Shown here: positions 316 to 52,540 of the stretch, piece by piece
Numbering within the stretch: the first letter of the stretch is position 1
How the letters are laid out: each line of letters opens with the position of its first letter
Notes under the pieces: model-generated
The model's database searches: none
Seen by the model: the letters and a program-made list of their open reading frames with translations, nothing else
Told to the model about the DNA's origin: nothing
Made by a program: the position numbers and the translations under genes
From: Clostridia bacterium
GTDB lineage: Bacteria; Bacillota; Clostridia; Oscillospirales; CAG-272
Direction: 5' to 3'
Length of the DNA: 64,000 nucleotides
Assembly: GCA_017451545.1 (NCBI GenBank)
Contig: JAFTOB010000160.1
Span: forward strand, 1-64,000

Positions 316-366
316 AATTTTTGCGTAAGCTTTGATAGCTTTCCTTTCAAAATTTATTTGGCGCGC

Positions 367-1281: not shown

Positions 1282-1330
1282 ATAAGCTCAAGGGACACCA
1301 ACCATAAGCAGGTAGGTGTCCCTTGGATTT
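1282..1330 (-). terminator. Rho-independent terminator after the 1339..3021 gene
   Basis: 11-bp perfect stem (caagggacacc / ggtgtcccttg) followed by a T-run on the minus strand. Confidence 0.5.
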
Positions 1331-1338
1331 TTCGACAA

Positions 1339-3021: not shown

Positions 3022-3034
3022 CATGATGTTCTCC

Positions 3035-15338: not shown

Positions 15339-15339
15339 A

Positions 15340-15888: not shown

Positions 15889-15904
15889 AGCTGTGTCCTT
15901 TCTT

Positions 15905-15932
15905 CCCGGGCAACGGCGAGCCGTTGCCCGGG
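15905..15932 (-). promoter_or_regulatory. 12-bp perfect-stem hairpin between the flotillin gene and downstream genes (no T-run)
   Basis: cccgggcaacgg-cgag-ccgttgcccggg. Possible mRNA stabiliser or processing site; it is not a canonical terminator. Confidence 0.35.
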
Positions 15933-15943
15933 GTATACGTGTG

Positions 15944-25461: not shown

Positions 25462-25495
25462 AGACCGCCCATCGGGCGGTCCGCTTTTTATTTAT
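25462..25495. terminator. Bidirectional terminator between pit and the convergent giant gene
   Basis: gaccgcccatcgggcggtc followed by TTTTT, with an A-run on the other side. Confidence 0.6.
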
Positions 25496-28400: not shown

Positions 28401-29481
28401 TAGTCTCATCGCCGCCGTAGGGACGGCTCGCTATATCCTTTGCGATAATATCCTTGGCACGGGCCCTTGCAAGCTCTATGTCGTGGTCCGCAAAAATCGG
28501 TACGGGCTCGACCTCCTTTCCGCTGTTGTTGGCCTCTGCCACAGCGGCAGAAACGGCGGTCTTCTGATCCGAAATATAGCTTCCCACGTAATCTCCGCCG
28601 TCGGCAAGGGTGTCAAGAAGTGCGCAGACCGCGGTCTTCAGCAGGTTATTGGCCTTGACGGCAGAATCGGTGGAGTCATCGTCTATGCTCGCTATTGCCG
28701 AGTCATAAATACTCTGAACGTTCTCGGGACGGTTGGTTTCGTCGGGATAGAGTATTCCGTAAACGTCCCCGAGCCCAGCCATCACCTTATCCTGCATACG
28801 CTGGATGTTTATTTTATTGATCAGCGAGTTGTAAAGGTTGCGGTATTCAATATCCGAGCTCTGAACGTTCTCCTCAGACGTAACGGCGCGACAGGCCGCA
28901 AGGCTTCCGCCCTCTTCAAGTGCCTTTTCAATGATGCCGTTTACTGCATCGGAGTCGCCCTCACGCCCAAGCGCAAGGATCATCTCCTTATATATGGCGG
29001 TGTACATACGGTCGCACATTCCGTTCTCGACTCCGAGAGTGAGCTCGTCGTGGACATTGGCATTTTCGATAGCCACACAGATATCGTTATACGCGTTATC
29101 AATGGCCGTGGCGGCATCGCCTGTGAAGTTATCCTTGAAGGTGTGGTATATCCACGTAACCTCGCCCGCCGCTCTGCCCTTCAGGCGCAGAAGCTCGATG
29201 GTGTCTATCTGCAGAACGCTGTCAAGCTGGAGCAGGTCTATTTTGGTTCGGTATCCGATAATACTGTTTCTCACGGCCTGCTTCTTGGTGGCATTTGATT
29301 CTATCGCATCGTAAGAGTCAGCAAGATTGCCGAGGTACGAGGTCGCGCTGTTGGCGGCGGCCACGTTCTGCGAGTATATGTCATCTGCGGCCGAGGCGGC
29401 AAATGAGAACACCGTGACGGCGAGAAGCACCGCGGAGATCATTATCAAGCCGTATTTCATTGTCCTTTTTCTGTTTGTCAT
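25492..29481 (-). CDS. Giant membrane protein: N-terminal signal, about 1000 aa of acidic Ala/Asp/Lys-rich repeats, two to three TM helices, and a C-terminal ribosomal uL15 (L15/L27A-family) globular-domain homolog
   Basis: The C-terminal 75 aa (GKKRAEINIDTIGRHFEAGEIVTLNTLKEKKLIAKSAGFVKILARGSLDKPLTVVAQSFSAAAVKMIVLTGGQTIVVEG) align with the uL15 C-terminal half (E. coli ...VVDLNTLKAANII...AKVILAGEVTTPVTV...AAGGKIE). AGGAG sits 7 nt before the ATG at 29481, and that ATG overlaps the dxs stop (ATGA). Confidence 0.8.
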   Translation of the reverse strand: MTNRKRTMKYGLIMISAVLLAVTVFSFAASAADDIYSQNVAAANSATSYLGNLADSYDAIESNATKKQAVRNSIIGYRTKIDLLQLDSVLQIDTIELLRLKGRAAGEVTWIYHTFKDNFTGDAATAIDNAYNDICVAIENANVHDELTLGVENGMCDRMYTAIYKEMILALGREGDSDAVNGIIEKALEEGGSLAACRAVTSEENVQSSDIEYRNLYNSLINKINIQRMQDKVMAGLGDVYGILYPDETNRPENVQSIYDSAIASIDDDSTDSAVKANNLLKTAVCALLDTLADGGDYVGSYISDQKTAVSAAVAEANNSGKEVEPVPIFADHDIELARARAKDIIAKDIASRPYGGDETMIALEREYNADSGIIDGCNTQDELDFEIARAALRADLYKKYLDTVSAIDGYVGDSTLKDDALDEYELADYNVKKIDRATDGAADSCTEAYDKGCEKLYELEVEAEVEDYLTDHAEILEKTPSGVTEDDREAILAAVQGITGLSDEAKTALNEERVPDDLAEKYKKITADKIGGIVGNTTPLREKYLGELTAQVNALDAEDDCNKLADVVTDADRIEDKAEEVDRVLDRYDEITAEDGYESFADADKTKLEGIADSASDGIVKASDETNITKAADDATVELNRARACAEVDAKASERDDLSESARAEADKTVADAKEKIAGLTDADEIDKAADDAVFALAKIFDVNDATEKVDNLKAKVESLGFLDATAKDGLKSDADGLLEDAKKAVADAETYDELEKAISDFEAAVTELETNSDKQDSDAEKAQKDAAVSELETEKNELKEKIDGLAYLTKEEKADLKNSADRAFEDAKSAVDAADSTDTVNKSKDAALTALDTVSKEADDRNAIAKHSQAAEAEAELRNKYDDVEDEISNLDYLTSAEKELLKKEATDAIEDFIGELAKAESMEDIRAAKADAYGALDAVLTKGKADNLAAAKESATGKLKAEKNKTDKLVDDFAFLKAEDQIQLKADNQAMLDAALAEIDAAESIDAVSDAHGDGAKKLSDHRENAQNAEDNACVNTLMPAIIALSALAVAEGAALLVLSKVGRKAKAHAYSFVPVTALAAVAPPVISPIAACILLIVLALADLFMAVLIVRLILKIERNRKRARLEEVEPEPAVEEVHDDLEVFDPEIITEPEPESVPEPVEEPAPAPVLVAVKQPDQLEGRAPRARLEPATKVTEWVSPIVLPEVKESVTVEEAEELMTDEEAALCEQTDVETGEIYTGKKRAEINIDTIGRHFEAGEIVTLNTLKEKKLIAKSAGFVKILARGSLDKPLTVVAQSFSAAAVKMIVLTGGQTIVVEGSPERGRK

Positions 29482-37088: not shown

Positions 37089-37163
37089 GCCTGCATAGTT
37101 AAATGGATATAATAACCCCCTCCTAAGGGGTAGTTATGGGTTCGATTCCCGTTGCGGGTGCCA
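37089..37163 (+). tRNA. tRNA-Arg (anticodon CCT)
   Basis: Folded by hand. Acceptor GCCTGCA/TGCGGGT with G1-U72 and U4-G69 wobble pairs, U8, D-loop with GG, anticodon stem ACCCC/GGGGT with loop CTCCTAA, 4-nt variable loop, T-loop TTCGATT, discriminator G, CCA encoded. Confidence 0.65.
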
Positions 37164-37199
37164 AAAAGCCCAAGCACCGAAAGGTGCTTGGGCTTTTTG
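37164..37199 (+). terminator. Rho-independent terminator after tRNA-Arg
   Basis: aaaaagcccaagcacc-gaaa-ggtgcttgggcttttt. Confidence 0.7.
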
Positions 37200-37201
37200 A
37201 T

Positions 37202-37247
37202 ACTTGCACGGCAACACATCTTTGCGCGAAGCGCAAAATTGGGTTCG
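37202..37247. repeat. 46-bp direct repeat, copy 1 (contains palindrome ttgcgcgaagcgcaa)
   Basis: Identical to the copy at 37341..37386. Confidence 0.8.
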
Positions 37248-37317: not shown

Positions 37318-37386
37318 TTCCCGTTGCGGGCTTTTTTGCCACTTGCACGGCAACACATCTTTGCGCGAAGCGCAAAATTGGGTTCG
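37318..37386. repeat. tRNA-Arg 3'-end remnant (ttcccgttgcggg) plus a T-run plus 46-bp direct repeat, copy 2
   Basis: Looks like a deleted derivative of the tRNA 3' end, terminator and repeat seen at 37146..37247. Confidence 0.7.
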
Positions 37387-37394
37387 TAATAACA

Positions 37395-37430
37395 ACGCAA
37401 GCTCCCCGACGCTGTCGGGGAGCTTGTGTT
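37395..37430. terminator. Bidirectional terminator (agctccccgac-gctg-tcggggagct plus a T-run)
   Basis: Lies immediately 3' of the convergent 37431..39218 ORF. Confidence 0.6.
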
Positions 37431-39218
37431 TTAAAAGATATCGTCTATTGCGTCGTCGGAGTCGACGGCGGTGAGGGTCACTTTAAGCGAATAGGTTCCG
37501 GCATTGGAAAGGCTTGAGGTATCAAGCTTTACCGTGTAGGCCACGTTCTCGTGGAGTGTGACCTCGCCCGTACCAACTTCGCTTCCGTCCGCTCTGTAGA
37601 CGGTTGCGGGGGTGTCTCCCTCAAACTTATAATCGCCTGCTACGTCAACCGTCAGCGTGTAGCTAATATAACCGGGGGTGATATCGATACTTCTGACGAT
37701 GATGCTGTTGTCGCCGACAGTCAGGACTCTCTCGATAGCTTTGACAGAGATCTTGAGAGAATAGCTGCCCTGCGCGATGATGCCGCTGAGCTTGACGGTG
37801 TACGTGCCCGCCGCCAGATCGAGCTCGCCGCTGCCGAGATTCTTGCCTGCGGCATCGTAAACAGCCAAGTTAAAGTTTGCACCGTTGAAGACATACGTAT
37901 CCGGAGTATCGACCTTGAAGATATATGAAATGGTTCCCGCAGTGACGTCAATGCTTCTGACGGTGATCGTATTAATGCCAACGTTTAACGTTCTGTTCAT
38001 CTTCTTTACCGAAATGCTCAGCGGATAGCTGCCGGCCTTGGTGATACCGCTGACTTTAACGGTATAAGTTCCCGCCTCAAGGTCGAGCTCGCCGTTTCCG
38101 AGGCTATTACCCAATGCGTCGTAAACAGCGACCGTAAGTCCTGTGCAGGAGAAGATATAGGTCTCGGCGGTGGTTGCCTTGAAGGTGTAAGACAGGGTGC
38201 CGGGAGTCACGTCAATGCTACGGACAAGGATGCTGTTGGAGCCGACCTTCAGGGTTCTGTCGATCTTCTTTACCGAAATGCTGAAGGGATATTCCCCTGC
38301 CTCGGTGATGCCGCTGACCTTGACGGTGTAAGTTCCCGCGGGAAGGTCGAGCTCGCCGCTGCCGAGGCTCTTGCCTGCGGCGTCATACACGAAAAGGTTC
38401 AGACCCGTGCAGGCAAAGACGTAGGTCTCCGCGGTGTCGGCCTTAAAGGTGTAGGTCAGAACGCCGGGTGCGACAACGTCGATCTCGCGGACCTTAACTG
38501 TATTAGAGCCGACCTTCAGGGTTCTGTCCATTTCCTTTACCGAAATATTCAGAGTATAGTTCCCTGCCTCGGTAACGTTTCCGAGGATAACGGTGTAAGT
38601 ACCGGCAGGGAGGTCGAGCTCGCCGCTGCCGAGGGCGTTACCGTCGGTGTCATAGACAGCAACCGTCAGGCCGTCTGCGGTGAAAACATAGGTTTCCGCG
38701 GCGGTCGCGGTGAAGGCGCATTTCACGGTTCCGTTTTCGATGTCCTTGACTTCAACGGCAAGAGTATTCTCGCCGACGGTGGCGGTGAAGACGGTCTGCT
38801 TTTCGGACGAAAGCCCGATCCAGATATCGTAAGTACCCGCGACAACTCCGTCGTTTATATCCAGCCTTACGGTATAAATACCGTTAGCAAGATCCATGAC
38901 GTTGCGTCCCTCAAGGGAGCCATCCGAGTTGTAAACGCTTGCGTTGAAGTAATTGCTGAAGAAGGTATACTCGCCTGCGGCGGTTACGGTGAACTGGAAT
39001 TCAACACTTCCGCCTGCGATATTTTCATCGGTCAGGGTAATATCATTGTAGCCGCCCTCAAGGCTCGGAAGCTCGGGAAGCTCCTCGGGAGGGGTATCCG
39101 AGACCTTTGTCAGCACGTACTCGGTTCCCGCGTGAATGAAAACGTCTGCGTTTCCGTTTTCATCGAGAACCAGAACGGCATCGGAGACATAAGTCGCGAC
39201 TCCGTTTATATATATCAC
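37431..39218 (-). pseudogene. C-terminal portion (595 aa) of the giant Ig-like-repeat lipoprotein, separated from 39446..44005 by a frame change
   Basis: Six tandem 90-aa repeats of about 90 aa each, of the same type as in the upstream giant ORF. There is no signal peptide. The GTG start has no RBS. The reading frame stays open upstream to 39497 and encodes protein-like sequence, overlapping the end of the upstream ORF. Confidence 0.5.
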
Positions 39219-39445
39219 CTTTTCTTCGATCTTTTGACCGTCCCTATAAAAAACAACTTTCCCATCGACTATCTCGTACTCAAATTTGCCTATTCTGCCG
39301 TTAGAATCCTCGACAGTGAGCTTGTTCTCGTATATGATGACCTCTACGCTCGTATTAAAATAGCTATTGGTTCCGTTATATTTGCCGATGAGGGAAGGTG
39401 TCTGTGATGGGGGGAGAGGATTATCGGGGTTATCCTCTCCCCCAC

Positions 39446-42400
39446 CTATTCCCCCTCCTGATCCCCGTCTCCTTCGGTAACGGTATATTCGGTACCGTTA
39501 TCGGTAAGGCCGACGAGCTTGCCGTCGGTGACGGTAAGGCCCATACCGGACATTGCGTTGCCTTCATCGTCAACTATGGTTGCAACACCGTCGATAAAGG
39601 TATATGCGTAGGAGTTGGTCATGGGGTCGCCGGTCAGGTGGTGAATAAAAGAAATCGTAACAGTAGTATCGTCGACGACAACGTTCTTCGTATTTCCACC
39701 GGAATCGGTGGCAACGTACGTGCCGGTGATGTCGATATTGGGGAGCTCGGGCTCGTCGCCACCGACGGTAACGACCCAGCCGTCCTCGCCAACCTCAAAC
39801 TTGACGGCGGTGATGACGGGGGCGTTTCCGGTTGCCTCCTCATGCTCCATAGCGGTGAGGTTGAGGATCAACGTACCGTTATTGTTATCCGTAACTGTAT
39901 AGGTGTAGTATGCCTTGCAAATAACGTTCCACTCTTCGTCCATCTCGATATAGCACACGTAATAGACATTCGTGAGCATATCCCGGGAAACTTCGATCGT
40001 AATACCGTTATCAAGCATATTGTAGGAATCAAGGATCCTTCCCCACTCTGCCTCGGTGAGTGCGCCTGCCTCAAAGGTCAAGGTAGCCTCAACGGTGGCG
40101 GGAGTCTCGGAGTAGAAATATACGATATAGGTTTTTCCTGCAACAACGGGAGCGGTTACCGTGGTCTCGCCCTCGGACAGCTCTACCTCTGCAAGAGTGA
40201 CAATAACGGTTCCGTTAACGGTGAGGGTCACGTGACCGGTCTCGGTTGCGGTGAACTCATAGTAGTAAGCGGACCAATCGGATGGGAGATTGGGCTTCAA
40301 GGTTGCGGGGAAGCTTTCGATCTTATCGGGATTATCGTAGGATCCTGCGGGAGCTGCAAACTCAACGGTAATGCTGTAATCACCTGCGGTTGCTGCACTT
40401 ACGGTTACGGTATAGGTGGTATAGCCGTCAAGAAGAGCGCCGTTCTCAACGGTATTTCCATCGGCGTCGGTGATAACAAAGGTCAGACCCTCGCCCTTGA
40501 CGGTGTAGTATCCCCTGTCATAAGTGAAAAGGAATACAACGGTAGATCCGTCGACCTTAACGTCTATGCTTCCGTAATTATCAAGGATCACAGGAGCGCC
40601 CACGGTGAGGGTGTACTCGCCTGCGGTCTCTGCGGTAACGGTTATCTTGTACTGAAGATAGGACTCGAGAGTGTACTCGCCGCCTGCGGGCTCGACAACG
40701 TTGCCTTCGCCGTCAGTGACAACGACGGTCAGGCCTGTACCGGTGAAGGTATACTTGCCGTTATTGTAGGGGGTGTATACGCAATCAATACCCTCTGCGG
40801 GTACGGTAACGGTATTCTCACCATCCTCAAGCACAACGGGTCTTTCGGCAGAGACGTTGACGACGTAGTCGCCTGCGGTCTCAGCACCGATAACCACGGT
40901 GTAAGAGCCCATATATGCGGCTTCAAGGTCAACGGTAACAGCACCGAAGCCCTGAACCATAGGCATACCCCAAGTGTCATAGATCGCAATGGATGCACCG
41001 TTTGCGGTGAAGGTGTAATTTGCGTTCTCGTAAACGTTGAGGTAGGTGGTTGTACCGTTTACGGTATCGGAAACGGTAATAGTATTCTCCCCTTCCTCGA
41101 GGTAAATGTCCTCGGGGATCTCGGGATCGTCGGGATCGTCGGGCTGATCGGATACACCCATAATGACGTAGGTGACCGTCCAGCTTCCCTTTGTTGCCGC
41201 GCTGATATGGAACTTATAGATCTCCCCTGCAGTAAGCTCGACCGCAAAGGTTCCTCCGTTCGGATCGTTGTTGAAGTCAACGTAAGGCATTGAAGAAAAT
41301 TCGGTTTCATATTTTACCGCATCCCAAGCACCGAGGCCTGCAGGCACGGTGAAAATATATTTGCCCGTCACGGTTGCGCTGATCTCAATGTAGTCATCCC
41401 AAGTGTACGTCTCGGTGATAGTTCCGCTCACAGAGCCGTTGCCAATCTCTACAAGCTCCTCGTCCTCTTCTTCCTCGGTGACTCTGGTCATATTCTGAGC
41501 CATGGGCATACCCGAGCAGAGGAAGGTGGGCGTTACGCCGTCGAGAGCCAGGCTGATAATGATATTGGCTTCACTTCCGTCGGCCTTAAGAACGGTAATG
41601 CCGCCCATAAGAGTTCCTGTGTAAGTATAGCTTCCGCTGTATGCTCCGTTATTATTGTCAACTATGGTGAGAGCACCGTTGTTAAACTCAAGAACGAACA
41701 TACCCGACAGAACGTTCCACTTACCGTTGAGCGCGGTCTCGATCTCGGGCTCCTCATCCTCGCCGCCGCTCTGGAGCGTGAGGGTATACTTGTTGCCGTT
41801 GTAATAGAAGAGCGAGGGATTGCCGTCTGCGCCAAGCTCAAGCTTTCCAAAGTACTGAGCCATGGGACCGTTGGGATCAATGGGGCCGTTGGCGTTGCTG
41901 AGAGTCACGACACCGTTATTGACGGTGAAGGTGTATTCGAATGCATACGTGCTGAATTTGAAAAGGACCGTTCCTGCAGCGGGGTTATATTCCAGCGTTC
42001 CGCTGTTTGCAGGGGAGCTTGCTGCGTAAATGTACGAGCCGTCGTCCTCCTTCATATCAGCGGCGGTAAAGGTGATCTCTGCGGGCTCGGTTCCGTTGTA
42101 TACAACGGTGAAGCCGTTTCCGTTTACAGAATAGTTATTCGCAGTGGTTCCGGAAACGTACACCTGTCCCTCGGGATCGGTGACGGTGACACCGTCGACA
42201 GTCCAGGTAATAGCGTAAGTGCAGATGCTTGCGGCACCGCTGGTTCCGAATCCGCTGAGGTGCACTGTGTACTCCTTGCCGGGCTTGAGAGTCACGGTGT
42301 TCTCACCGGGCTTGAAGGTAAGCTCGTAGGATACGGCTTTATAATCGACGCGAACGTTTCCGTCCTTGTCGGCCTTGAGGAGGAAGGCGCACTGGGAGTT

Positions 42401-44005
42401 TGCCTCAACGTAGACCTCCTGAACGGTTGCCCAAGTCTTGCCGCCGTCCACGCTGATCTGCACGCCGTTACCGACGGATATCTCGTAGAAGCTGCCGTTC
42501 TCGGAATTGTTGACAAAGTAGTTGGTGGCACCCGTGGTACTTGCATATCCCGCGTTGCCGCCGAGAGTCTCGTCGTAAAATATCTCCTTGCCGATATTTA
42601 CGACCTTGAGAGTATCCTGCAGGTCGGTCTCAGCGGATGCGCTGGTTCTGACGAAGAACAGGAAGGTCTCGTTTGCCTCAAGAGAGATCATATAGCTGTG
42701 ACCCTGGGGCATCATAAAGGTGTCTTCCCAAGTGCAGATGTTGGAATTCTCGTTTGCAAATTCAAAGAGATAATCGCTGTCCGCAGGAGCGGTGAAGCTG
42801 TATGCGGTATATTTGTTCATATCCACTGTCATTGCCGTGTCGCCGAGATTTACGACTATTCCCTCAAGGGGTTTGATGCTCCAATCGAAGTCAAAGGCTC
42901 CGACCGTAATATCGAGCAGCTTGATCTGAAGAGTGATCTCCTGATTGTCCTCGGTTGCGGTGATGTAGTGGGAGTTCTTAAGTGCATCGTCGATGGTGAT
43001 GTACTCGACTGAGGTGTAGAACTCGTAAAGGCCCTTGGTGGGCAGAGTAAACTTAACGTTTACCACGGTGTTCGAGGGGAACAGATAGCTTCCCTCGGTC
43101 TCGGTAAGCTCAACGGTGTCCTCGATCTTTACTACGTAGTAGAAATATCTGACGGTGGGATCCTCATCGTTGATAAGATCCTCGCTCATGGGGAAGATAC
43201 GGCTCTTGACGGTATACTCACCGGCCTTGTCAACCTCAAATACGTATTCCTTAGCAAAGCTTCCGCCCTCTACGTTGGGACCAAAGTTGATGTCCTCGTG
43301 ATCCGACGAGAAAACAAGGTACTTTCCGGCAGAAGGCAGATCGAGGGTAAGCGTGCCGTAGTAGTACTTCCACGTGGCGTACACGCCGCCGATCTCGCCC
43401 TCCTCATCCTCGAGGATGACCTCGGCATAAGCAACACGGGTGGCCTCAACGGTAACCTCGGTATCGGCAGAAATTTTCGACACGGTGAAGCTCCAGACAA
43501 ACTCGATGCCATCCTCCTCGGGCTCGCCGTCCTGCTCTGCCCCGTTTGCGGTGAGAGCAAATGCGGGTGAACCTGTAACGGTAAAGGTAACGTCCTCTCC
43601 GGGCTTTGCGGTCAGAGTACCTTCAACGGTAAAGCCCTCGGGAGCGGTGACTGTGACCTTGTAGGTCATTCTGTACTCGCAGGTATCGCAAAGTCCGTTG
43701 GCATCGTTATCCGCATGGGGTGCGAGGTCGGAGGTCTGCTCCTTGTGCTCGCAGCTCGCGGCGTGCCAGTGATTATTTTCATCCGTTGTCCAATTATTCT
43801 CAAAAGTATGGGTGTGATCGGGGTCGATGGGTGTTGTCGTTTCGTCCCCGCCGGGTATTGTGGTGGTGTCACCGCCCGGAGTGGTAGTGGTTGAATCGGG
43901 TGCCTTCGTTGTGGAGTCACCTTCTGCCGATCCGTCTCCGCCACAGCCTACCATAAGCAGGGCTACGATAAGAAGCGCAACCAGCAAATAGAAACTTTTC
44001 TTCAT
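39446..44005 (-). CDS. Giant surface lipoprotein (1519 aa) with many tandem beta-sandwich (Ig-like) repeat domains
   Basis: Lipobox LMVGC, a Thr/Pro-rich linker, a His/Cys-rich segment, then repeated roughly 90-100-aa units with motifs like TAGEYTLTV and AGDYVVNV. Confidence 0.8.
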   Translation of the reverse strand: MKKSFYLLVALLIVALLMVGCGGDGSAEGDSTTKAPDSTTTTPGGDTTTIPGGDETTTPIDPDHTHTFENNWTTDENNHWHAASCEHKEQTSDLAPHADNDANGLCDTCEYRMTYKVTVTAPEGFTVEGTLTAKPGEDVTFTVTGSPAFALTANGAEQDGEPEEDGIEFVWSFTVSKISADTEVTVEATRVAYAEVILEDEEGEIGGVYATWKYYYGTLTLDLPSAGKYLVFSSDHEDINFGPNVEGGSFAKEYVFEVDKAGEYTVKSRIFPMSEDLINDEDPTVRYFYYVVKIEDTVELTETEGSYLFPSNTVVNVKFTLPTKGLYEFYTSVEYITIDDALKNSHYITATEDNQEITLQIKLLDITVGAFDFDWSIKPLEGIVVNLGDTAMTVDMNKYTAYSFTAPADSDYLFEFANENSNICTWEDTFMMPQGHSYMISLEANETFLFFVRTSASAETDLQDTLKVVNIGKEIFYDETLGGNAGYASTTGATNYFVNNSENGSFYEISVGNGVQISVDGGKTWATVQEVYVEANSQCAFLLKADKDGNVRVDYKAVSYELTFKPGENTVTLKPGKEYTVHLSGFGTSGAASICTYAITWTVDGVTVTDPEGQVYVSGTTANNYSVNGNGFTVVYNGTEPAEITFTAADMKEDDGSYIYAASSPANSGTLEYNPAAGTVLFKFSTYAFEYTFTVNNGVVTLSNANGPIDPNGPMAQYFGKLELGADGNPSLFYYNGNKYTLTLQSGGEDEEPEIETALNGKWNVLSGMFVLEFNNGALTIVDNNNGAYSGSYTYTGTLMGGITVLKADGSEANIIISLALDGVTPTFLCSGMPMAQNMTRVTEEEEDEELVEIGNGSVSGTITETYTWDDYIEISATVTGKYIFTVPAGLGAWDAVKYETEFSSMPYVDFNNDPNGGTFAVELTAGEIYKFHISAATKGSWTVTYVIMGVSDQPDDPDDPEIPEDIYLEEGENTITVSDTVNGTTTYLNVYENANYTFTANGASIAIYDTWGMPMVQGFGAVTVDLEAAYMGSYTVVIGAETAGDYVVNVSAERPVVLEDGENTVTVPAEGIDCVYTPYNNGKYTFTGTGLTVVVTDGEGNVVEPAGGEYTLESYLQYKITVTAETAGEYTLTVGAPVILDNYGSIDVKVDGSTVVFLFTYDRGYYTVKGEGLTFVITDADGNTVENGALLDGYTTYTVTVSAATAGDYSITVEFAAPAGSYDNPDKIESFPATLKPNLPSDWSAYYYEFTATETGHVTLTVNGTVIVTLAEVELSEGETTVTAPVVAGKTYIVYFYSETPATVEATLTFEAGALTEAEWGRILDSYNMLDNGITIEVSRDMLTNVYYVCYIEMDEEWNVICKAYYTYTVTDNNNGTLILNLTAMEHEEATGNAPVITAVKFEVGEDGWVVTVGGDEPELPNIDITGTYVATDSGGNTKNVVVDDTTVTISFIHHLTGDPMTNSYAYTFIDGVATIVDDEGNAMSGMGLTVTDGKLVGLTDNGTEYTVTEGDGDQEGE

Positions 44006-44042: not shown

Positions 44043-45800
44043 TCATTCAGTGTAATATGCGCAGGCGAACAGCCACTGATCGTCCTGCATTGCGTCGACG
44101 TCGATAACGTCGTTCTCCTCGACCCAGCCCGCGCCGTCATTGAAATAGCGCTGTGCCTCGCTGAGTCTTTGCAAAAAGACGCGAAGCTCCTCGGTCAGAG
44201 GAAAATATCCGTCCCGATTGGCGAAATCGGCATAGCCGGGACCGCCGATAAGCTCCTTGCGGCAGGGCGTACAATCGCTGATACAGCCCTCGCAATCGGG
44301 TGGGCAGGCCAGACCGTATTTCCCGCCGCCGTGGCAGGGGCATTTATAGCTACAATAATACGGAGGCATATCTACGCTTCCGCTCCAGGTAGCAAGATCG
44401 TCGTAGCCCTCTAGGAAATGCTTGTAATTGTGGTCAAGGTATTCCCCGTTCTCCTCCACGCGGATGGTCAGGCTCTTATTGCCCGGATCCTCGATATGGG
44501 TCAGAGAAAGCTGCAGGAATCTGCAGGGAGTGGTAATGGCGGCGTAGACCGTGGGGCCGTAGCCGTCGGTTTCCGCGTATTTTTCCTCATCGTAGAGATG
44601 ATAGAAGCCGTCCTCGGGGTTCAGCTTGAACATTGAGCCGTCAAATATGTTCTTTCCTCCCACGCGGATCTCGGGGTAGGTCAGCCTTCCCTCTTCGTTG
44701 TAAAGATTTTTCAGATACAGGCGTATATGATAGTATTCGTCTTCGCCCATGACCTTGAAAAGTCTCTCGTTGGGGTTTGTGGGATCCTCGTTTTCGTAAT
44801 TTTTCAGATTCTCGTAAGTTGTCCGAAGCGGGGGATCGTTCGGTGCCGCGTAGCGGGAAAGTGCGGCCGAGTAATCCTCCCAGCTCATTGCAAGCAGCTT
44901 ATCGAGCTCTCGGTTTATTGTAGCATAAAGCTCGGTGGGGATCTCCATTGCCTTTTCGGTTCGCGGTCTGACGTACGAGCCGTTTCTCGAAATGGCAAAA
45001 TCCACATTGACGGGAGAAAACTCCGTCGCTTTGGTCTCGACGTGGACGGCGAAGGTATAAACGTTTCCGATCATATCGGCGTCGACGTTGATCTCGTAAC
45101 GGAAATTCTTCGTGTAGCCCTTGCTTGCGCCGCCGTCATCCAGCGTGCGGTCGAAGAACTTGCTTGCGAAGGTTCCGTTGTAAAGATCGGCCTTGGGATT
45201 GATCTCGCCTGCGGTGATATCCACCCAGGATTCGACCACATAGGTTCCCTCCTCCGAGGGTACGAACTGATAATACACTACCGTATTAGCCTTTTTGATA
45301 TCGGCGCGGAAGACGCCGATGTCCTCAAGCTCAAAGCAACGGTAAAGCGATTTGCCCGTTCCCTTCGTGGGCTCGGTAATATCGTAAAGATCAATGACCA
45401 CGTTCCTCTCGTCGGCGGTGGCCACGTAGATATTGGGGTTATAGATCAGGCCGTCGGGCACCGAGGAGAGAGTTACGTCATAGTTTCCGTCAAGATCGCC
45501 GACGGTAGCTATTCCCTGCTCGTTGAACTCGGCGTTGTAGAAGCTGTATCCGTCTGTCCAATGGGCGAAGACCTTATCCTTAGGAATATATGGGTCGCCG
45601 TTATATCGGAGCGACACGGTGTAGGCGTTTTCGTCGGGCACGCTGTCACTCGGCGGGGTTGCCGTGGTGCTCTCATCGGGAGCGGTGGTACCGTTCGGCT
45701 GTTTTATCGCCTCTGTATACTCACCGCAGCCGATCATTGCGCAGACCAGAAGGAGCAAAACGGTGGAGACAAATATTTTTTTCATCTTTCGGTTTTTCAC
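44043..45800 (-). CDS. Lipoprotein of unknown function with a Cys-rich C-terminal region
   Basis: Lipobox MIGCG. CPCHGGGKYGLACPPDCEGCISDCTPC cluster. Confidence 0.7.
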   Translation of the reverse strand: MKNRKMKKIFVSTVLLLLVCAMIGCGEYTEAIKQPNGTTAPDESTTATPPSDSVPDENAYTVSLRYNGDPYIPKDKVFAHWTDGYSFYNAEFNEQGIATVGDLDGNYDVTLSSVPDGLIYNPNIYVATADERNVVIDLYDITEPTKGTGKSLYRCFELEDIGVFRADIKKANTVVYYQFVPSEEGTYVVESWVDITAGEINPKADLYNGTFASKFFDRTLDDGGASKGYTKNFRYEINVDADMIGNVYTFAVHVETKATEFSPVNVDFAISRNGSYVRPRTEKAMEIPTELYATINRELDKLLAMSWEDYSAALSRYAAPNDPPLRTTYENLKNYENEDPTNPNERLFKVMGEDEYYHIRLYLKNLYNEEGRLTYPEIRVGGKNIFDGSMFKLNPEDGFYHLYDEEKYAETDGYGPTVYAAITTPCRFLQLSLTHIEDPGNKSLTIRVEENGEYLDHNYKHFLEGYDDLATWSGSVDMPPYYCSYKCPCHGGGKYGLACPPDCEGCISDCTPCRKELIGGPGYADFANRDGYFPLTEELRVFLQRLSEAQRYFNDGAGWVEENDVIDVDAMQDDQWLFACAYYTE

Positions 45801-45815
45801 GCCGTTTTACCTCCT

Positions 45816-48800
45816 TTATGACGTTTTGGTTTTTACAAACAGGCTCTTTATATCGACCCATTTGAGTTTTCTTATGATAATATCGATGACGTAGAGTGCT
45901 ACGGCGATGATCAGAAGCGGGACCGTGTAGTTCACCTTATAGGTCGAGATCTCCTTTTCGTCGTTCTCTATCTTGGGGACGCCGTTCTCGGTGATGGTAC
46001 CGTTGCCTCTTATTGCCTGGTTGAGATCAGAGGCGCTGAAGGTTGCAAAGCTGTCATACTCGGGGGAGTAGGACACGTTGAAGTAGGTATCCGACACGTA
46101 TTCGTGATCATCGTAAGAATAAGTGAAGGTTATCTTATATTTACCGAGATCGGGAGTCGCAAATTCGTAGTAGTAACCCGTGGAGTTAAAGAGGAGCTGA
46201 TCGGCAATAGTTTCGCCGTTCGGCAGAGTGATCTCCATATGCATCGTGGCGTAAGGATTGAGAACTGCGGGGATCACCTCGATGAAGGAGGACTCACCGT
46301 CATACTCAACGCTGACAGAATAAGGATCGTTGATCTTCTCCGACGGAGTGTTGACCTCAAGCACGTTCTCGAGGAAGTCCTGACCCGTGCTGTCCACCCA
46401 ATCGCGGGCCCATTCGCCCGAGATCGAGCTTGTGAAGGTCGAAACCTTACCGTTTCCGTAGCTCCAATAGACGTATATGGGGGGCTTGGCCACGCCCTCG
46501 CCCGTTCTGGTGTACTCGGTGGTGAGAACGGTGGTGGCGCTCGCCTTGGCGCTTGAATAAACGTAACCGTAAAGGTCGGGAAGGCGTTTGATGCCCTCAA
46601 GCACGTCGTCATGCTCCTTGCTGATATTGACGGGCGACTTTTCTTCAATGACAGTTTCCTTGAGCTGATCCATCATATCTGCCGACATTTCATACTGTAC
46701 CCATGCGTTTTCGTCATCGGTGCTCAACACGTATGTTCCGACGGCGGGCGAGACGAACCAATATTCTATTCCGCCCTTATCGATATCCTCTTTGGATACG
46801 GTTATTTTATTGTCGCCGTATGCCAGATAATTCTTCGTGGGGTTTGTGGGATCGCCTGCCGAATCCACCTGCTCGTCACCGATATAGGTGATGCTAAGCT
46901 CGATCTCGTCGGCATCCCCGTTGAACGTGGAGATATAAAGCTTGAGGATCTTTCCCTTATAAAGCTCAAGATAAACACTCTCGCCGCCACGCAGACCTGC
47001 CATGGTGTTCATATCGGTGAGGTTGCCGTCCTCCTTGATCTCATAGAACTTTCCGTTACCGTACTTGGCTATGGATTTCATCATGGACAGTCCCTCGTCG
47101 GTATTATCCGCAGGGGGACAAGGGTAAATGGCCGAAGTGTTGATCCCCTCGGCGCTCATATCCTTGACGACGTCGATGGCGTTGGGGGTCTCCTCGCCAA
47201 AGGCGCGACCGTCGGAGATCAGATAGACCTCGCGGCTGTCGAAGGGCTGATCCTTCATAAGCTCTGCGGCCTGGAAAAGTGCCGAGCCGAGGAAGGTTCC
47301 CTGAGTTGGGCGAATGGCGTTGATTCGATCCTCGATCTCCTGTCTGTAATCCCCTACCCTTACGGGCTTGTAGACCACCTTGACGTCTCCGGAGAAGGAA
47401 ATGACCGAGACGTAATCGTCTGCGTTCAGCGTGCCGAGGAACTCCACCGCCGCTTTTTTCAGAGTTATAAGTCTGGATGCCTGATCCATACTGAGCGAGC
47501 TGTCAAGCACTATGGCGTAAAGCTTCTCCTTCTGATCCGAGTTGCCGAATTTTACGGGAAGCATATCCTCAAGCTGCTTCAGCACCTCGTCGGTCTTATT
47601 CTGGATCTTGAGATCTCCCACCGTTACAAGGCTCTTGCCGAAGAGCGAGACCACCTTATCCACGTTACCGATGAATGCGGTGTAGTTATCAAGCTCGCGG
47701 ACGTCCTGATTCGAGATAATGATCTCATCGTACTCGCAAAGCGCCTCGACGGTTACGGGCAGCTTATCGAGCAGGCTTTCTTCATCGTATTTTCCCTCGG
47801 GCAGCTTGACCTTGGGATCGCTGATAAATGCATCGATCTTGGCGTTTGCGCCGTAGATTCTGTGTATCGCATCAAGATCCGAGGCCAGCGGTGTCACCAA
47901 CAGAACGCTGATATCGCCCGAAACACTTTGAGTGAAGCTATAGCTGTTGTTGTGGGGAGACACGTCATCCTTCGAGCTGATCTTGATCTCGTAATCAAAA
48001 TCGCCCTCGTCCCCCGTTTCGAGCTCCACGTTGACCACGTTGTAGCCACGCGAGAGCTGAACCGCCTGAGTGGACACGTTGACCGAATTTCGGTAGACCG
48101 AAAGGATAGTCTGCGCGTCGTAGGTGCTCTGAAGAAGCACGTTTGCCGTGGTTTCGTGGTTGAGGTAGGTGGATTTAGTGAAGTCCACGCCTGTTATCTG
48201 CACCTCAAGATCGTCTTCCTTGAGGTTGTTGTCCAGATAAATGGTATCAATATAAATATTCTGTGCGCGGAGGTTTTCGATGGAGGCTATAAGCTCCTTC
48301 GTGTCCTCGCTGTTCGTCTGTTTTCCGTCGGTTATAAGAACGATCCTCTTTATAACGTTGTCCTTAAAAAGACCCGCAGCGTAATCGAGAGCGGGGGCGA
48401 TATGAGTGGCTCCGCTGTCGACCTTTGCGTTCTTAACACTCTCAAGCTCCTCGCCCATTTCGGTAACGAGCTCATAATCCGCGCCGAAGCAGATGAGACC
48501 CACCTTTGAGTTCATGGGAAGATTTTCCTTCACCAGGGCATCTATATATTGATCAACCGTATCGAGATTCCGATTTGCGGAATAGGACACGTCGGCCACG
48601 ATATAAACGTTGGTCTCGGTTATGACCGTGGTGACCACGGTTCCCGCCAGCGCGAAGACGATGGCAACGATTATGACGAAATGGAGTATAAAGGATGCGA
48701 TGACATGGCCGTTTCTGTTATCCTTTCTTATAGCGATAAGGAAAGGGATAAGAACCGCTAAAACGAGGGGTATTGCGACGAGAAACAGATAGGGATTATC

Positions 48801-48818
48801 GAAGCTGATATTTTTCAT
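45816..48818 (-). CDS. Membrane protein with two von Willebrand factor A domains (BatB-like)
   Basis: N-terminal TM helices. Two VWA units (around ADVSYS...ITDG and around LDSSLSM...ISDG). C-terminal TM helix. The start is chosen at the internal M (MKNISFDNPYLF) and overlaps the upstream gene. Confidence 0.7.
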   Translation of the reverse strand: MKNISFDNPYLFLVAIPLVLAVLIPFLIAIRKDNRNGHVIASFILHFVIIVAIVFALAGTVVTTVITETNVYIVADVSYSANRNLDTVDQYIDALVKENLPMNSKVGLICFGADYELVTEMGEELESVKNAKVDSGATHIAPALDYAAGLFKDNVIKRIVLITDGKQTNSEDTKELIASIENLRAQNIYIDTIYLDNNLKEDDLEVQITGVDFTKSTYLNHETTANVLLQSTYDAQTILSVYRNSVNVSTQAVQLSRGYNVVNVELETGDEGDFDYEIKISSKDDVSPHNNSYSFTQSVSGDISVLLVTPLASDLDAIHRIYGANAKIDAFISDPKVKLPEGKYDEESLLDKLPVTVEALCEYDEIIISNQDVRELDNYTAFIGNVDKVVSLFGKSLVTVGDLKIQNKTDEVLKQLEDMLPVKFGNSDQKEKLYAIVLDSSLSMDQASRLITLKKAAVEFLGTLNADDYVSVISFSGDVKVVYKPVRVGDYRQEIEDRINAIRPTQGTFLGSALFQAAELMKDQPFDSREVYLISDGRAFGEETPNAIDVVKDMSAEGINTSAIYPCPPADNTDEGLSMMKSIAKYGNGKFYEIKEDGNLTDMNTMAGLRGGESVYLELYKGKILKLYISTFNGDADEIELSITYIGDEQVDSAGDPTNPTKNYLAYGDNKITVSKEDIDKGGIEYWFVSPAVGTYVLSTDDENAWVQYEMSADMMDQLKETVIEEKSPVNISKEHDDVLEGIKRLPDLYGYVYSSAKASATTVLTTEYTRTGEGVAKPPIYVYWSYGNGKVSTFTSSISGEWARDWVDSTGQDFLENVLEVNTPSEKINDPYSVSVEYDGESSFIEVIPAVLNPYATMHMEITLPNGETIADQLLFNSTGYYYEFATPDLGKYKITFTYSYDDHEYVSDTYFNVSYSPEYDSFATFSASDLNQAIRGNGTITENGVPKIENDEKEISTYKVNYTVPLLIIAVALYVIDIIIRKLKWVDIKSLFVKTKTS

Positions 48819-50646
48819 AGCAATACACCGCCCAATCTGCCGCAAAAATCACCGCCAAACAGATAAATACGATGAGCAGACTGTCATACGTACCGTCAAA
48901 TCCGCCGGGCTCGGCCGTTCCCGTGAGGCTGAAATCTTCAGCAGAGGCCTGCGGCAGGCGCTCGCTCTCGGGAAGCTCTGAATAAATTTTGAAAACTCTC
49001 GGGTTATCCGACACCGTAACGGTAACGGTGTAGGTTCCCACCTCGGTAAGCGTGTAATCGCTGATTGCGCCCGCAGTATCAAGATAGGATATCTTGCCGC
49101 CGGGGCTGTCAACTCTGATGCTGTCGCAGTTTGCGATAACGTTCACGCTCAGCTCGTCTCCGCAGTAGTAGGAGGACTTTTCAATGACCTCGGGGAAAGA
49201 ATATTCCATAAAGTTCTTAACAAGGGCAATGAAATCCACCAGCACGGGGAGGTTTGAATCCTGCAGGCTGAATGCGAATACCACTTCTCTGTTTCCGTAG
49301 GTATTGGTGCCCGTAAAGACCACGGGGTTACCCTGATAGGTGAACAGAGGGGTGAACTTTCGGTAAAGACCGCACTTCACGAACCGTGTGATATATATAT
49401 CCTTACCGCCCACTCCCGCAGTCAGCTTTCTGACCACCGAGGAACTGTCCTTCGACATGGTGACGGTGCTCGGATCCTCAAGAGTTACGTCTCCCTGCAC
49501 GCTGAAGCCCGAATTGTCCACGCTCGCAGAGGGATTGATGATCCATACGGCGCCATCCCGTGGCAGCTCCGAAGGATCGTAGGAATCGAAAATATAAAGT
49601 CCGTAGCCGCTCTGACCCGTATATTCATCGGGTAGCATTACGTCTATGTTGGAGTATCCCGTGGCCGACAGCGCGCTTCTTATAAAGAAGGGGTTGGGGC
49701 TGACCGCTAAGATCTTGTAGGAATCGTCGCCGCTCTTTACGTTGTACACGATGACCTCGTTATCAAGAGCGAGAGAATCGTCGGATTCCAATACGACCTT
49801 TATGGACTTATAGCTCTTGCACTGGCAAGCAAGCTCAAAGGGAGTGCTCTCCCCTGCCTTTACCTCGACGGTTTCGACGGCGTTCGCCTCGGCGGCGTCA
49901 TCCACGTAGAGCTTGACCGTAAAGGTGGCATCCGCGAGGTAGGAGATCGCATTGCCGCTGACATTCAGCCTTCCCGCCGAAAGCACGGGGATGATACTGT
50001 TGATGGCTGCGTTCTTCTCCTTGCCCGCCACGTTGATGACCTCAACGTTGCCGTGTGCGGCATATGCGGTATCGGTGACAAGGTAGGTCAGGATCGATGG
50101 GCTTTCGTTGAAATACTTCTGCGCCTCGCTGATCGCCTCTGCCGTATCGGTCTCGCAATGGGAGGGCTCTATCTCATCCAGCAGAACGAGCACCTTTTCC
50201 TTGTCGGTCTCGCCCTCGAAGACCACTCTCGTGCCGTCGCCGTAATAAACGAGCGAGAATCTGCTTCCGTCCACGGCGTCGCCGACAAGCTCGGATATTT
50301 TCTCCTTGCCCATCTCAAATCGGGTCTTCCCTTCCTCGGAGACCATATTCATACTGCCCGTGCCGTCAAGCACGAAGCAATATTCATTGGCCGCGTTGGG
50401 GATGGTGACGATGGGATGAGCTATGGCCAGCGAGATAAAGAGAACTGCCAGAAGCTGAAGGATGAGGCTGATAAGTCCCGTCATTCGGCTGATGGGGTTC
50501 TTTCTTTTGAGAAATTTTTCGCTGAGCGTCCACAGATAGGTGGATGCCACAAGCTGCTCCGTATATTTGCTTTTTATTATGTATATGATTATCAGGATCG
50601 GAATTCCGATAAGTCCCAACAATCCGAGTGGGTATAAGAAGGTCAC
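48796..50646 (-). CDS. BatA-like membrane protein with a VWA domain
   Basis: BatA N-terminal TM motif (MTFLYPLGLLGLIGIPILIIIY), VWA (LDGTGSM ... TDTA) and a C-terminal TM anchor. ATGA overlap with DUF58. Confidence 0.75.
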   Translation of the reverse strand: MTFLYPLGLLGLIGIPILIIIYIIKSKYTEQLVASTYLWTLSEKFLKRKNPISRMTGLISLILQLLAVLFISLAIAHPIVTIPNAANEYCFVLDGTGSMNMVSEEGKTRFEMGKEKISELVGDAVDGSRFSLVYYGDGTRVVFEGETDKEKVLVLLDEIEPSHCETDTAEAISEAQKYFNESPSILTYLVTDTAYAAHGNVEVINVAGKEKNAAINSIIPVLSAGRLNVSGNAISYLADATFTVKLYVDDAAEANAVETVEVKAGESTPFELACQCKSYKSIKVVLESDDSLALDNEVIVYNVKSGDDSYKILAVSPNPFFIRSALSATGYSNIDVMLPDEYTGQSGYGLYIFDSYDPSELPRDGAVWIINPSASVDNSGFSVQGDVTLEDPSTVTMSKDSSSVVRKLTAGVGGKDIYITRFVKCGLYRKFTPLFTYQGNPVVFTGTNTYGNREVVFAFSLQDSNLPVLVDFIALVKNFMEYSFPEVIEKSSYYCGDELSVNVIANCDSIRVDSPGGKISYLDTAGAISDYTLTEVGTYTVTVTVSDNPRVFKIYSELPESERLPQASAEDFSLTGTAEPGGFDGTYDSLLIVFICLAVIFAADWAVYCYEKYQLR

Positions 50647-51527
50647 TTCAATACCTCCATATCGGTCAGTTTTCCGAAGAAGATCTCGGCCATGGAGTCC
50701 TCCGCGTTTGTCAGCATATAAGCTGCGCCGCGGGCTTCACAATAATTTTTGATCCTGTCAACGGTGTACTGCAGCGCATCCTTATAGGCGCGCACGATCT
50801 CGCGATCGATCTTTTTTCTGTATGACTTTCGCGTATTTTCCGAATCGAAAAGGTGCATCTTTCCGCGAAGCTGGGGGTTCATCTCTTCCCTCGACAGCAC
50901 CTGAATGCAAAGAATATCCCTGCGCTTATCGGCCAGGTGGTCTATGGCGTCCTCGTAGTTGTTGTCGGTGAGGAAGTCGGAGATTATGACCGACATACCG
51001 TCGCCGTGACCCACGCGGGACTGAAGAATGGCGTCCGAAATAAAGCTGTCACCGTCAAACTCGATCTCGTTGAGCTTGCCGATGGAGCCGATATACGCCT
51101 CTTTGCCCACTATCCCGTTCAGCACGTCGATGACCTGACTGTCGCGGATGATAAAGATGGAAACCTTTTCCATTTCACAGATCGAGATATACGCCAACGT
51201 AGCGGCCAAGCGCAAGGCTTGCTCTGCCTTCTGTCCTCTGCCGTAATCCATGGAGCGGCTGGCGTCGATATAGATCCTCGTGTGCATCTGACGCTCGTCG
51301 AGATAAAGCTTTTCGTAAAGCTTATCGAAGCGCGCGTATGCGTTCCAGTCGATCTTCGTCACGTCATCGCCCGGCATATAGTCGCGGTAATCCACAAATT
51401 CGCAGGACGAGCCGTAGGTCTTACTCTTACGGTTGCCCCCGAACATACCGGCTATATTGTTTTTGAGCAGGGTCTGCAGAGTTTCGATCTGCTGCAAAAG
51501 CTCCTCATTTACCGTAAATTTTGCCAT
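50643..51527 (-). CDS. DUF58 domain protein (MoxR partner)
   Basis: Conserved DUF58 core (EFVDYRDYMPGDDVTKIDWNAYAR). Canonical position after MoxR. Confidence 0.85.
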   Translation of the reverse strand: MAKFTVNEELLQQIETLQTLLKNNIAGMFGGNRKSKTYGSSCEFVDYRDYMPGDDVTKIDWNAYARFDKLYEKLYLDERQMHTRIYIDASRSMDYGRGQKAEQALRLAATLAYISICEMEKVSIFIIRDSQVIDVLNGIVGKEAYIGSIGKLNEIEFDGDSFISDAILQSRVGHGDGMSVIISDFLTDNNYEDAIDHLADKRRDILCIQVLSREEMNPQLRGKMHLFDSENTRKSYRKKIDREIVRAYKDALQYTVDRIKNYCEARGAAYMLTNAEDSMAEIFFGKLTDMEVLK

Positions 51528-51533
51528 ATCAAC

Positions 51534-52523
51534 TTACTTTGAGAGCTTTTTGTTTTCTCTTACGAGCATACCGATAACGTCATCGGCGGTCAATCTCTCG
51601 TTAACTGCGGTGTAGTTTACCTTGATTCTGTGTCTGAGAACGGGGCAAGCCAGCGCGTCGATGTCGGCGTAGGAGACGTTGTAGTTGCCGTTTACAAGGG
51701 CGCGAACCTTGGCGCAGGTGATGAGGGCCTGAGCCGCACGGGGGGATGCGCCGTACTTTATGTACTTCTTTGCGGTGACAGAGGTATCGTCAAGCTCGGG
51801 GTGAGTGTTGGAGACGAGATTGATGGCGTAGTTCAGTACGTCACCAATTACCGGGACGGTGGCCGCAAGGGCTCTCATTTCCATGATCTCCTCGCCGTTG
51901 ACCGAAGCCTCGGCGGTCTCCTCCATGGTGATCTGGGTCATTCTGACGATATCTGCAAGCTCGGCCTTGTTCGGGAACTTCATAAGAAGCTTGAAGACGA
52001 AGCGGTCCATCTGAGCCTCGGGCAGCGGGTAGGTTCCGTCCTGCTCCACGGGGTTCTCGGTTGCGAGCACGAAGAAGGGCTCGTCGATCTTATATGTCTC
52101 GCCTGCCACGGTAACCTTGTGCTCCTGCATGACCTCAAGCATTGCGGACTGGGTCTTGGGGGTTGCACGGTTGATCTCGTCGGCAAGGACGAGGTTGGCG
52201 AAGATGGGGCCCTTGCGGAAGCTGGTGTTGAGCTTTCCGTTATCGTCCTTTTCGACGATATTGGTACCCGTAACGTCGGAAGGCATAAGGTCGGGGGTGA
52301 ACTGAATACGCGAGAAGGGGAGCTGGAGGGTCTTGGCCAGCGAACGGACCAGACGGGTCTTACCTACTCCGGGAACACCCTCAAGCAGAACGTTTCCGCC
52401 TGCGATGATCGCGATAATAACGTTATCGATTATTTCCTGCTGACCGACAACGTCGCGTGCCAGCTGCTCCTTGATTGCGGCGATCTTCTGGCTGAATGCC
52501 GCTACTCTTTCCATGTTTTCCAT
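51534..52523 (-). CDS. MoxR-family AAA+ ATPase
   Basis: Walker A GVPGVGKT, Walker B LADEINR, and the MoxR-specific insert. Confidence 0.9.
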   Translation of the reverse strand: MENMERVAAFSQKIAAIKEQLARDVVGQQEIIDNVIIAIIAGGNVLLEGVPGVGKTRLVRSLAKTLQLPFSRIQFTPDLMPSDVTGTNIVEKDDNGKLNTSFRKGPIFANLVLADEINRATPKTQSAMLEVMQEHKVTVAGETYKIDEPFFVLATENPVEQDGTYPLPEAQMDRFVFKLLMKFPNKAELADIVRMTQITMEETAEASVNGEEIMEMRALAATVPVIGDVLNYAINLVSNTHPELDDTSVTAKKYIKYGASPRAAQALITCAKVRALVNGNYNVSYADIDALACPVLRHRIKVNYTAVNERLTADDVIGMLVRENKKLSK

Positions 52524-52540
52524 AATATATCCTTCCTTTA

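Follow-up and report, generated by a model that had tools for sequence, protein, structure and literature searches.

The locus treated here lies in a 64,000-nucleotide (nt) stretch of the Clostridia bacterium contig JAFTOB010000160.1, referred to below as the window, and the question that it raises is whether two consecutive open reading frames (ORFs) on its minus strand are separate genes or the two parts of one gene for a giant lipoprotein. All coordinates are window positions, and both reading frames of the lipoprotein gene lie on the minus strand. The first, ORF A, runs from ATG 44005 to TAG 39448–39446 and encodes 1519 amino acids (aa), in agreement with the end point at 39446 given by an earlier, sequence-only reading of the locus; the second, ORF B, is annotated from GTG 39218 (595 aa). 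That reading had proposed one giant lipoprotein gene split by a single change of frame at a short G/C homopolymer. The split is supported, and it is probable that 44005–37431 is one gene for a lipoprotein of ~2191 aa, interrupted by what is most likely a real and recent frameshift that dominates the sampled population. The assignment to a split gene is based on a seamless switch of the coding signal from one frame to the other, the continuity of an orthologue across the junction, three syntenic loci with a single ORF, and the position of GTG 39218 inside a conserved domain without a ribosome binding site (RBS).

Frame B is free of stops from 39497 to TAA 37433–37431. It overlaps the end of ORF A, as had been stated before, over a short interval that is open in both frames (Table 1). 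The first ATG, GTG or TTG in this frame is GTG 39218, and the 93 codons upstream of it hold no possible start. Stops occur about once per 27 codons in the other two same-strand frames across the gene, and the chance of 93 stop-free codons ahead of the first start is roughly 0.03. A codon-usage log-likelihood trained on 21 other window genes is strongly positive in frame A to ~39520, crosses over to frame B between 39490 and 39460 and remains strongly positive in frame B thereafter, with no non-coding interval in between; over ORF B it is as high as over ORF A. The move from A to B corresponds to a −1 shift, i.e. the DNA is one base short, and in silico insertion of one G into the G5 run at 39451–39455 restores a single ORF of 2191 aa, close to the ~2190 aa anticipated earlier. 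The repaired gene ends in TAA, and the TAG that closes ORF A is the rarest stop in the window (four of 59 ORFs above the coding-score cut, in a list that includes antisense shadow ORFs). At the other end of the gene, an RBS (aaggaggag) precedes the ATG of ORF A, and the N-terminus is that of a predicted bacterial lipoprotein, with a signal peptide, a lipobox and the invariant Cys at which lipidation is expected. By inspection, the relatives discussed below show comparable N-termini (LVAC in P0002, IASC in P0003, LAAC in P0004 and LASC in P0010).

GTG 39218 is in fact an internal Val codon within a conserved domain and not a true start. No Shine–Dalgarno (SD) sequence precedes it (upstream ...gatcgaagaaaag), unlike ORF A and the neighbouring genes, which have AGGAGG-type sites. 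An AGGAGG does occur 4 nt ahead of ATA 39449, and neither GTG 39218 nor ATA 39449 provides ORF B with a signal peptide. The lack of an RBS and of a signal peptide at the GTG, noted in the sequence-only reading, is borne out by this check of the upstream sequence. The same holds for its remark that ORF B is of the same repeat type as the first ORF: residues 149–402 of ORF B align with residues 972–1214 of ORF A at 36% identity (E 7e-15). The stretch ahead of the GTG had been described as protein-like, a view now strengthened both by codon usage and by a homologue. An exhaustive phmmer search of the frame-B product (37434–39449) against 1.84 billion representative proteins returned P0007, a 132-aa fragment, with 52% identity and E 4.9e-22. 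The match covers query residues 5–97 and lies mainly before the GTG, which is residue 78, and homology extends at least 73 residues upstream of GTG 39218. A home-made hidden Markov model of the beta-rich linker domain, based on seven copies, gave the pre-GTG segment 15.8 bits, compared with 9.8 for the best of 1000 shuffles, a weak support that the L006 match described below supersedes, and pairwise BLASTP of this segment against ORF A and P0002–P0004 gave marginal matches (E 0.01). A single-sequence AlphaFold model of the residues encoded by 39449–39099 was all-beta, at low confidence (mean pLDDT 53.9), and was not used as evidence.

The orthologue that spans the junction comes from another metagenome (TONG22-1_SAMN15871219), where it lies on the contig L006 (4116 nt), which also carries P0007. 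L006 keeps one reading frame throughout (frame 3, nt 3–4115), covering 1371 codons. Its translation aligns with the repaired window protein in a single BLASTP high-scoring segment pair (residues 1346–1964, 45% identity over 636, E 1e-149), which passes through both the frame change and GTG 39218. In the one frame of L006, VDEDGNPLESVSMTVEEGTLVAITVDGVEFSAFE…LPPVDSSSMVGKYNGYNSYFN is the counterpart of VDDEGNAMSGMGLTVTDGKLVGLTDNGTEYTVTE, with which ORF A ends, and of …LPPSQTPSLIGKYNGTNSYFN…, with which frame B starts. Two in-frame stops are present in L006. TAG 2649–2651 aligns with Tyr-1468 of ORF A and TGA 3075–3077 with the Gly of DENGNAD, a single change being sufficient in each case (TAY>TAG and GGA>TGA). 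Relative to the window frameshift they are located ~50 codons before and ~100 codons after, and three lesions from two lineages fall within ~150 codons of a ~2190-codon gene. The chance of such clustering amounts to a few percent by a rough estimate that considers the coverage of L006, which is suggestive only. The L006 stops as such suggest that this part of the gene was disrupted independently in a second lineage.

More distant relatives bear out this architecture. In the window, the giant lipoprotein gene (44005–37431) is the last of a seven-gene operon (Table 1), whose members are co-directional and in canonical order, with Pfam matches to AAA_3/bpMoxR, DUF58, BatA and VWA above the gathering scores. 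The same order is found in L004, L008 and L009, where an unknown protein of ~470–580 aa is followed by MoxR, DUF58, BatA/VWA, a double-VWA protein of ~908 aa and another unknown protein of ~520–610 aa. Each of these operons terminates in a single uninterrupted giant ORF (1304, 2376 or 2571 aa), after which unrelated genes follow. In the 2376-aa protein, P0010, one chain holds a beta-rich linker domain and an immunoglobulin (Ig)-like repeat in the same succession as in the window. Two separate genes with a proper start for the second, named in the sequence-only reading as the pattern that would speak against a split, are the opposite of what this comparison with orthologues reveals: L006 is continuous across the junction, and L004, L008 and L009 have single ORFs. 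Among the relatives, the terminal giant lipoprotein varies greatly in length (1304–2571 aa) and in domain content. A His/Cys-rich motif, HTHTFENNWTTDENNHWHAASCEH…HADNDANGLCDTCEY, is present in one copy in ORF A (window 43673–43822, minus strand, residues ~62–111) and in several tandem copies at the N-termini of P0002, P0004 and P0010. It has no Pfam match and could be a metal-binding extracellular module.

The lesion must fall within 39449–39497, because both frames are open there. Homology to L006 holds frame A through ...TEYTVTEG (~39470) and frame B from ...EDNPDNPLPP (~39437), and together with the TAG at 39448 these limits place what is, on the alignment, a net −1 nt change somewhere in 39449–39472. 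The run at 39451–39455 indicated by the sequence-only reading exists and is a G5 on the coding strand. Still, only the frame change itself can be retained from the claim that it occurred at this homopolymer, since the G5 is one candidate within 39449–39472 and the G4 at 39463–39466 is equally plausible; a more complex indel history at the junction is conceivable as well. The second run indicated earlier, a G6 at 39410–39415, is actually located at 39409–39414 (off by one position) and is a C6 on the coding strand. Its position beyond the TAG rules it out as the site of the lesion.

Both candidate runs belong to a G-rich repeat with a period of 12 nt, which in frame B encodes the Gly-rich linker GSGGGIGGGED and shows no indel among its copies. 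L006 lacks this repeat; between conserved anchors the window differs from it by +23 and −3 nt, a net +20 nt that equals seven codons minus one base. A strong hairpin starts at the last base of the TAG, with the G-rich repeat paired to the C-rich NPLPPS codons. Its strength is within the top 0.2% of 50-nt segments on the minus strand (28 of 12,790), most of the others being intergenic, terminator-like hairpins; its folding z-scores relative to shuffled sequences are unremarkable (−1.63 and −0.91), and it is absent from L006. By rough estimate, a hairpin this strong within ~10 nt of the lesion is unlikely to occur by chance (~0.01). The most economical reading is that the context of repeat and hairpin rendered the site indel-prone, in the cell or, less likely, in sequencing. 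A G-quadruplex at the lesion site was considered and rejected, as by inspection only three runs of at least three G are within reach and no canonical motif is formed.

Table 1. Features of the lipoprotein locus and its surroundings, in window coordinates unless a contig is named.
Feature	Position	Strand	Remark
Upstream operon genes: 487-aa unknown, MoxR AAA+ ATPase, DUF58, BatA/VWA, double-VWA (1009 aa), 585-aa unknown	44043–54004	−	
ORF A, first 1519 codons of the lipoprotein gene	39446–44005	−	Exact protein is NCBI IJX46_09750
Signal peptide and lipobox MKKSFYLLVALLIVALLMVGC of ORF A (predicted)	43943–44005	−	PROSITE-type lipobox regular expression; residues 1–21
Interval with both frames open	39449–39497	−	Stop scan of the frames
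G4 run, alternative candidate site	39463–39466	−	Edge of the 12-nt repeat; an added G gives linker ...TEGDGGSGGGIGGGEDNP..., by reading and not by computed repair
G5 run, candidate site of the sequence-only reading	39451–39455	−	An added G gives linker ...TEGDGDQEGGIGGGEDNP... and the 2191-aa ORF
G-rich tandem repeat, 12-nt period, 2.4 copies	39438–39466	−	GGGGATCAGGAG / GGGGAATAGGTG / GGGGAGAGG
Premature TAG, frame A	39446–39448	−	Attributed to the frame change
Strong hairpin, 15 bp, one bulge, 10-nt loop, −25.7 kcal/mol	39406–39446	−	39446–39432 paired with 39421–39406
Frame-B continuation of the lipoprotein gene	37431–39449	−	672 codons and TAA; one beta-rich linker domain, then Ig-like repeat array
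GTG annotated as start of ORF B (IJX46_09745)	39216–39218	−	Internal Val codon in a conserved domain: EEKVIYINGVATY in the window, EQKLIYINGIATY in L006
Intrinsic-terminator-like hairpin directly 3′ of the full-length gene's TAA	37398–37426	−	Marks the operon end
L007 alignment	L007:1–844 = 38173–37328; L007:787–1987 = 37247–36047		

A base that is missing from a G run may be missing from the consensus only, in which case the cells would hold an intact 2191-aa gene and the split would be a sequencing or assembly artefact. We consider this explanation unlikely but not negligible. Across the site, the window is base-for-base identical to an ENA scaffold (ERZ28654584, XIEF21-1_SAMN15829954_METAG-scaffold_629, 86 kb; identical over 16.6 kb) and to a Logan contig of SRR12529366, the latter over its whole 9.6 kb, 467 nt of which lie past the end of ORF A. 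The NCBI metagenome-assembled genome, "Clostridia bacterium", holds the same two proteins as hypothetical IJX46_09750 (ORF A) and IJX46_09745 (ORF B). Because these three assemblies of the sample agree, a real mutation is more likely than an assembly error. Of the three causes that the sequence-only reading had listed, a real mutation is favoured, a sequencing error is less likely on account of this agreement, and phase variation is disfavoured (see below).

The presumed platform points in the same direction. Illumina PCR-free sequencing rarely yields indels in a consensus. Going by its name, the XIEF21 record would come from Xie et al. 2021 (PMC8199421), who studied the ruminant gut with PCR-free libraries read on the Illumina NovaSeq (150 bp) and assembled by MEGAHIT and IDBA-UD. 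Furthermore, the other window ORFs that were scanned appear intact. Of ten such ORFs searched with Pfam, three had no match and the matched ones have complete, unsplit domains. The overlapping same-strand pair 6580–7311 / 4775–6697 likewise has unsplit Pfam domains, and the pair 15187–16047 / 15845–16528 has no Pfam match, nor has one further ORF. As far as these domains indicate, there is no sign of other frameshifts or of general assembly trouble.

Independent lesions in relatives also favour a real mutation, as genes of this lipoprotein family do get disrupted. Besides the nonsense codons in L006, a possible deletion is found in L007, a 2-kb contig from a third assembly (ERZ27256817) that is 99% identical to the window and ends short of the junction. 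L007 lacks one nucleotide in the ORF B frame (GGG>GG, window 37936–37934). Within the ORF B region it differs from the window only in its initial 240 nt, which lie in the repeat array, and the deletion may for this reason be a contig-end artefact. In addition, L007 is without ~138 nt of the window's intergenic region, and a ~58-nt overlap matches window 37385–37328 and 37247–37190 alike.

Several points weigh against a real mutation in a single gene. The agreeing assemblies all apparently derive from one sample (SAMN15829954 / SRR12529366). The site is G-rich, tandemly repeated with its G4 and G5 runs and adjoined by a very strong hairpin, a combination that can provoke systematic sequencing or assembly problems. 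The frame of ORF B is otherwise intact over 689 codons, as would be expected of an artefact. The sole close orthologue is a fragment of 45–48% identity that carries interruptions of its own. Protein searches, GTDB species genomes and JGI metagenomes yielded no second strain across the junction; the protein searches, made with the repaired 2191-aa sequence, an ORF B extended upstream and a profile of two sequences, returned only the two ORFs of the window and three distant relatives.

With a real frameshift as the preferred explanation, the lesion would have to be recent, because 689 stop-free codons of frame B retain an undiminished coding signal. The G-rich stretch 39449–39472, which encodes the linker, would be one base short (net −1 nt; +20 nt relative to the orthologue), and ribosomes starting at ATG 44005 would reach the TAG and release a lipoprotein of 1519 aa. 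Its end would lie in the linker behind a complete domain, at a domain boundary, and one beta-rich domain as well as the Ig-like array of roughly six units would be missing. The product should remain displayed because its anchor is an N-terminal lipid. The remaining 672 codons, which lack an RBS, a signal peptide and any start codon ahead of GTG 39218, would go untranslated. In these terms the case is an ordinary frameshift split, a truncating or pseudogenising lesion that is publicly annotated as two hypothetical proteins.

Slipped-strand phase variation would instead imply that the length of a G run toggles the C-terminal Ig-repeat array of a surface lipoprotein. A surface protein, a frame change at or near G runs and a downstream frame as intact as in a reversible OFF state are all in keeping with such a switch. 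Contingency tracts usually comprise 7–8 or more G/C, a length associated with hypermutability that neither the G5 nor the G4 attains. The window contains 46 G/C runs of at least five bases, none longer than six, and phase variation is disfavoured because such runs are commonplace. Moreover, the 12-nt repeat changes length in frame, and L006 has no G tract at the equivalent position. We therefore regard phase variation as improbable.

A comparably slim chance is assigned to the view that the interruption is no accident. It could reflect a recurrent, selected truncation or switch-off of the C-terminal Ig array in gut Clostridia, or a recoding of the message into short and long isoforms. The basis for this view is the combination of the window frameshift with the TAG and TGA of L006 within ~150 codons, bordering the Ig-repeat array. 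The recoding in question could be −1 frameshifting aided by the hairpin, or stop read-through, in a giant lipoprotein associated with MoxR/VWA genes.

Programmed −1 frameshifting in its specific form, on G_GGG_G with the hairpin at the TAG and the upstream AGGAGG as stimulators, would give rise to two isoforms, of 1519 and 2191 aa. The required shift is indeed −1, and tRNA-Gly could re-pair on GGG. The hairpin, one of the strongest in the window and one of few that are intragenic, starts just 3′ of the shift window, and an SD-like AGGAGG is present at 39459–39454. Conversely, no X_XXY_YYZ heptamer exists in the zero frame; the sequence reads G_GGG_GAA, which does not allow canonical re-pairing of the A-site tRNA. 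In signals of the dnaX type, the hairpin follows after a spacer of 5–9 nt and the SD-like element is located 10–14 nt upstream, whereas here the hairpin comes 2–4 nt after the candidate site and the SD-like element abuts it. The shuffle z-scores quoted above are weak, and L006 shares neither the frameshift nor the hairpin. With no heptamer, wrong spacing and no conservation, programmed frameshifting was rejected as the principal explanation and appears very improbable.

Least credible is the literal reading of the annotation as two genuine genes, with ORF B translated independently from GTG 39218 or from ATA 39449 behind AGGAGG. The public record does list IJX46_09750 and IJX46_09745 as separate proteins, and the AGGAGG lies 4 nt from the ATA. 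Still, the GTG has no RBS and cuts a conserved domain, neither start would supply the Ig-repeat protein with a signal peptide, and relatives show one ORF only where the window has two. As a start codon ATA is very poor, and initiation there was rejected on this ground together with the missing signal peptide and the continuity of relatives across the site. Read-through or reassignment of the TAG, finally, was dismissed because translation would continue in frame A, and the homology downstream is in another frame; both TAG and TGA serve as stops in the window.

A few features of the surrounding DNA may be recorded independently of the split. The strongest hairpin of the window is located at 37156–37205, with −32.5 kcal/mol for the minus strand and −34.9 for the plus strand. 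Another of the strongest, at 37386–37435 (about −29 and −32 kcal/mol), corresponds to the terminator-like hairpin that follows the TAA of the lipoprotein gene. Both are in the short intergenic region that follows this gene. On the plus strand, a 631-aa ORF (39398–41293) is antisense to ORF A, and similar long antisense ORFs are present opposite other genes. These score lower for coding potential than the sense genes do and so resemble shadow ORFs caused by codon bias, and are probably not genes. Elsewhere, 25492–29481 (minus strand) encodes a predicted membrane protein of 1329 aa with a long Asp/Ala/Lys-rich helical region and a DUF1542 match. Its C-terminal tail, after hydrophobic segments resembling transmembrane helices, matches uL15 (PF00828, E 3.6e-13, residues 1249–1316), an unusual fusion.

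The immediate value of these results is for annotation. The entries IJX46_09750 and IJX46_09745 should become a single record that is marked as a frameshifted gene, and the 595-aa product should not be passed on as the seed of a protein family. Beyond this, the locus suggests that in Clostridia of the ruminant gut the C-terminal Ig-repeat array can be lost from a giant, domain-mosaic lipoprotein that closes a conserved MoxR–DUF58–BatA/VWA operon; the array may be dispensable or selected against, as the lesions in two lineages hint. What goes beyond the routine is limited to the recurrent lesions and to the conserved operon that ends in a giant mosaic lipoprotein, and the association of operon and lipoprotein may be the more interesting lead.

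In comparison with known systems, the closest parallel to the split is inlA of Listeria monocytogenes, a surface protein gene for which premature-stop alleles occur, sometimes at a short homopolymer. In both cases a large, repeat-containing surface protein gene is cut by a single lesion, giving a shorter product and leaving the downstream coding sequence intact but untranslated. The present lipoprotein differs in its N-terminal lipid anchor, by which the truncated product is predicted to stay attached and not to be released, and in being known from the sequence of an uncultured organism. Poly-G/C contingency loci, as they occur in Campylobacter, Neisseria and Haemophilus, share with it a surface-protein gene whose reading frame is set by the length of a G/C run, but the tract here is of only 4–5 bases, which is not unusual for this genome, and is absent from the orthologue. 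The likeness to dnaX-type signals consists in the −1 shift that is needed, the strong hairpin just downstream and the SD-like AGGAGG nearby; the slippery heptamer is lacking, the spacings are wrong and the orthologue does not share the arrangement. To our knowledge, a giant lipoprotein has neither been recognized as part of Bat-type operons nor been given a role in them. With such operons, e.g. the Bacteroides aerotolerance operon, the locus shares MoxR, DUF58, BatA and VWA in canonical order, and it differs from them in that the operons of the window, L004, L008 and L009 end in a giant domain-mosaic lipoprotein of 1300–2600 aa.

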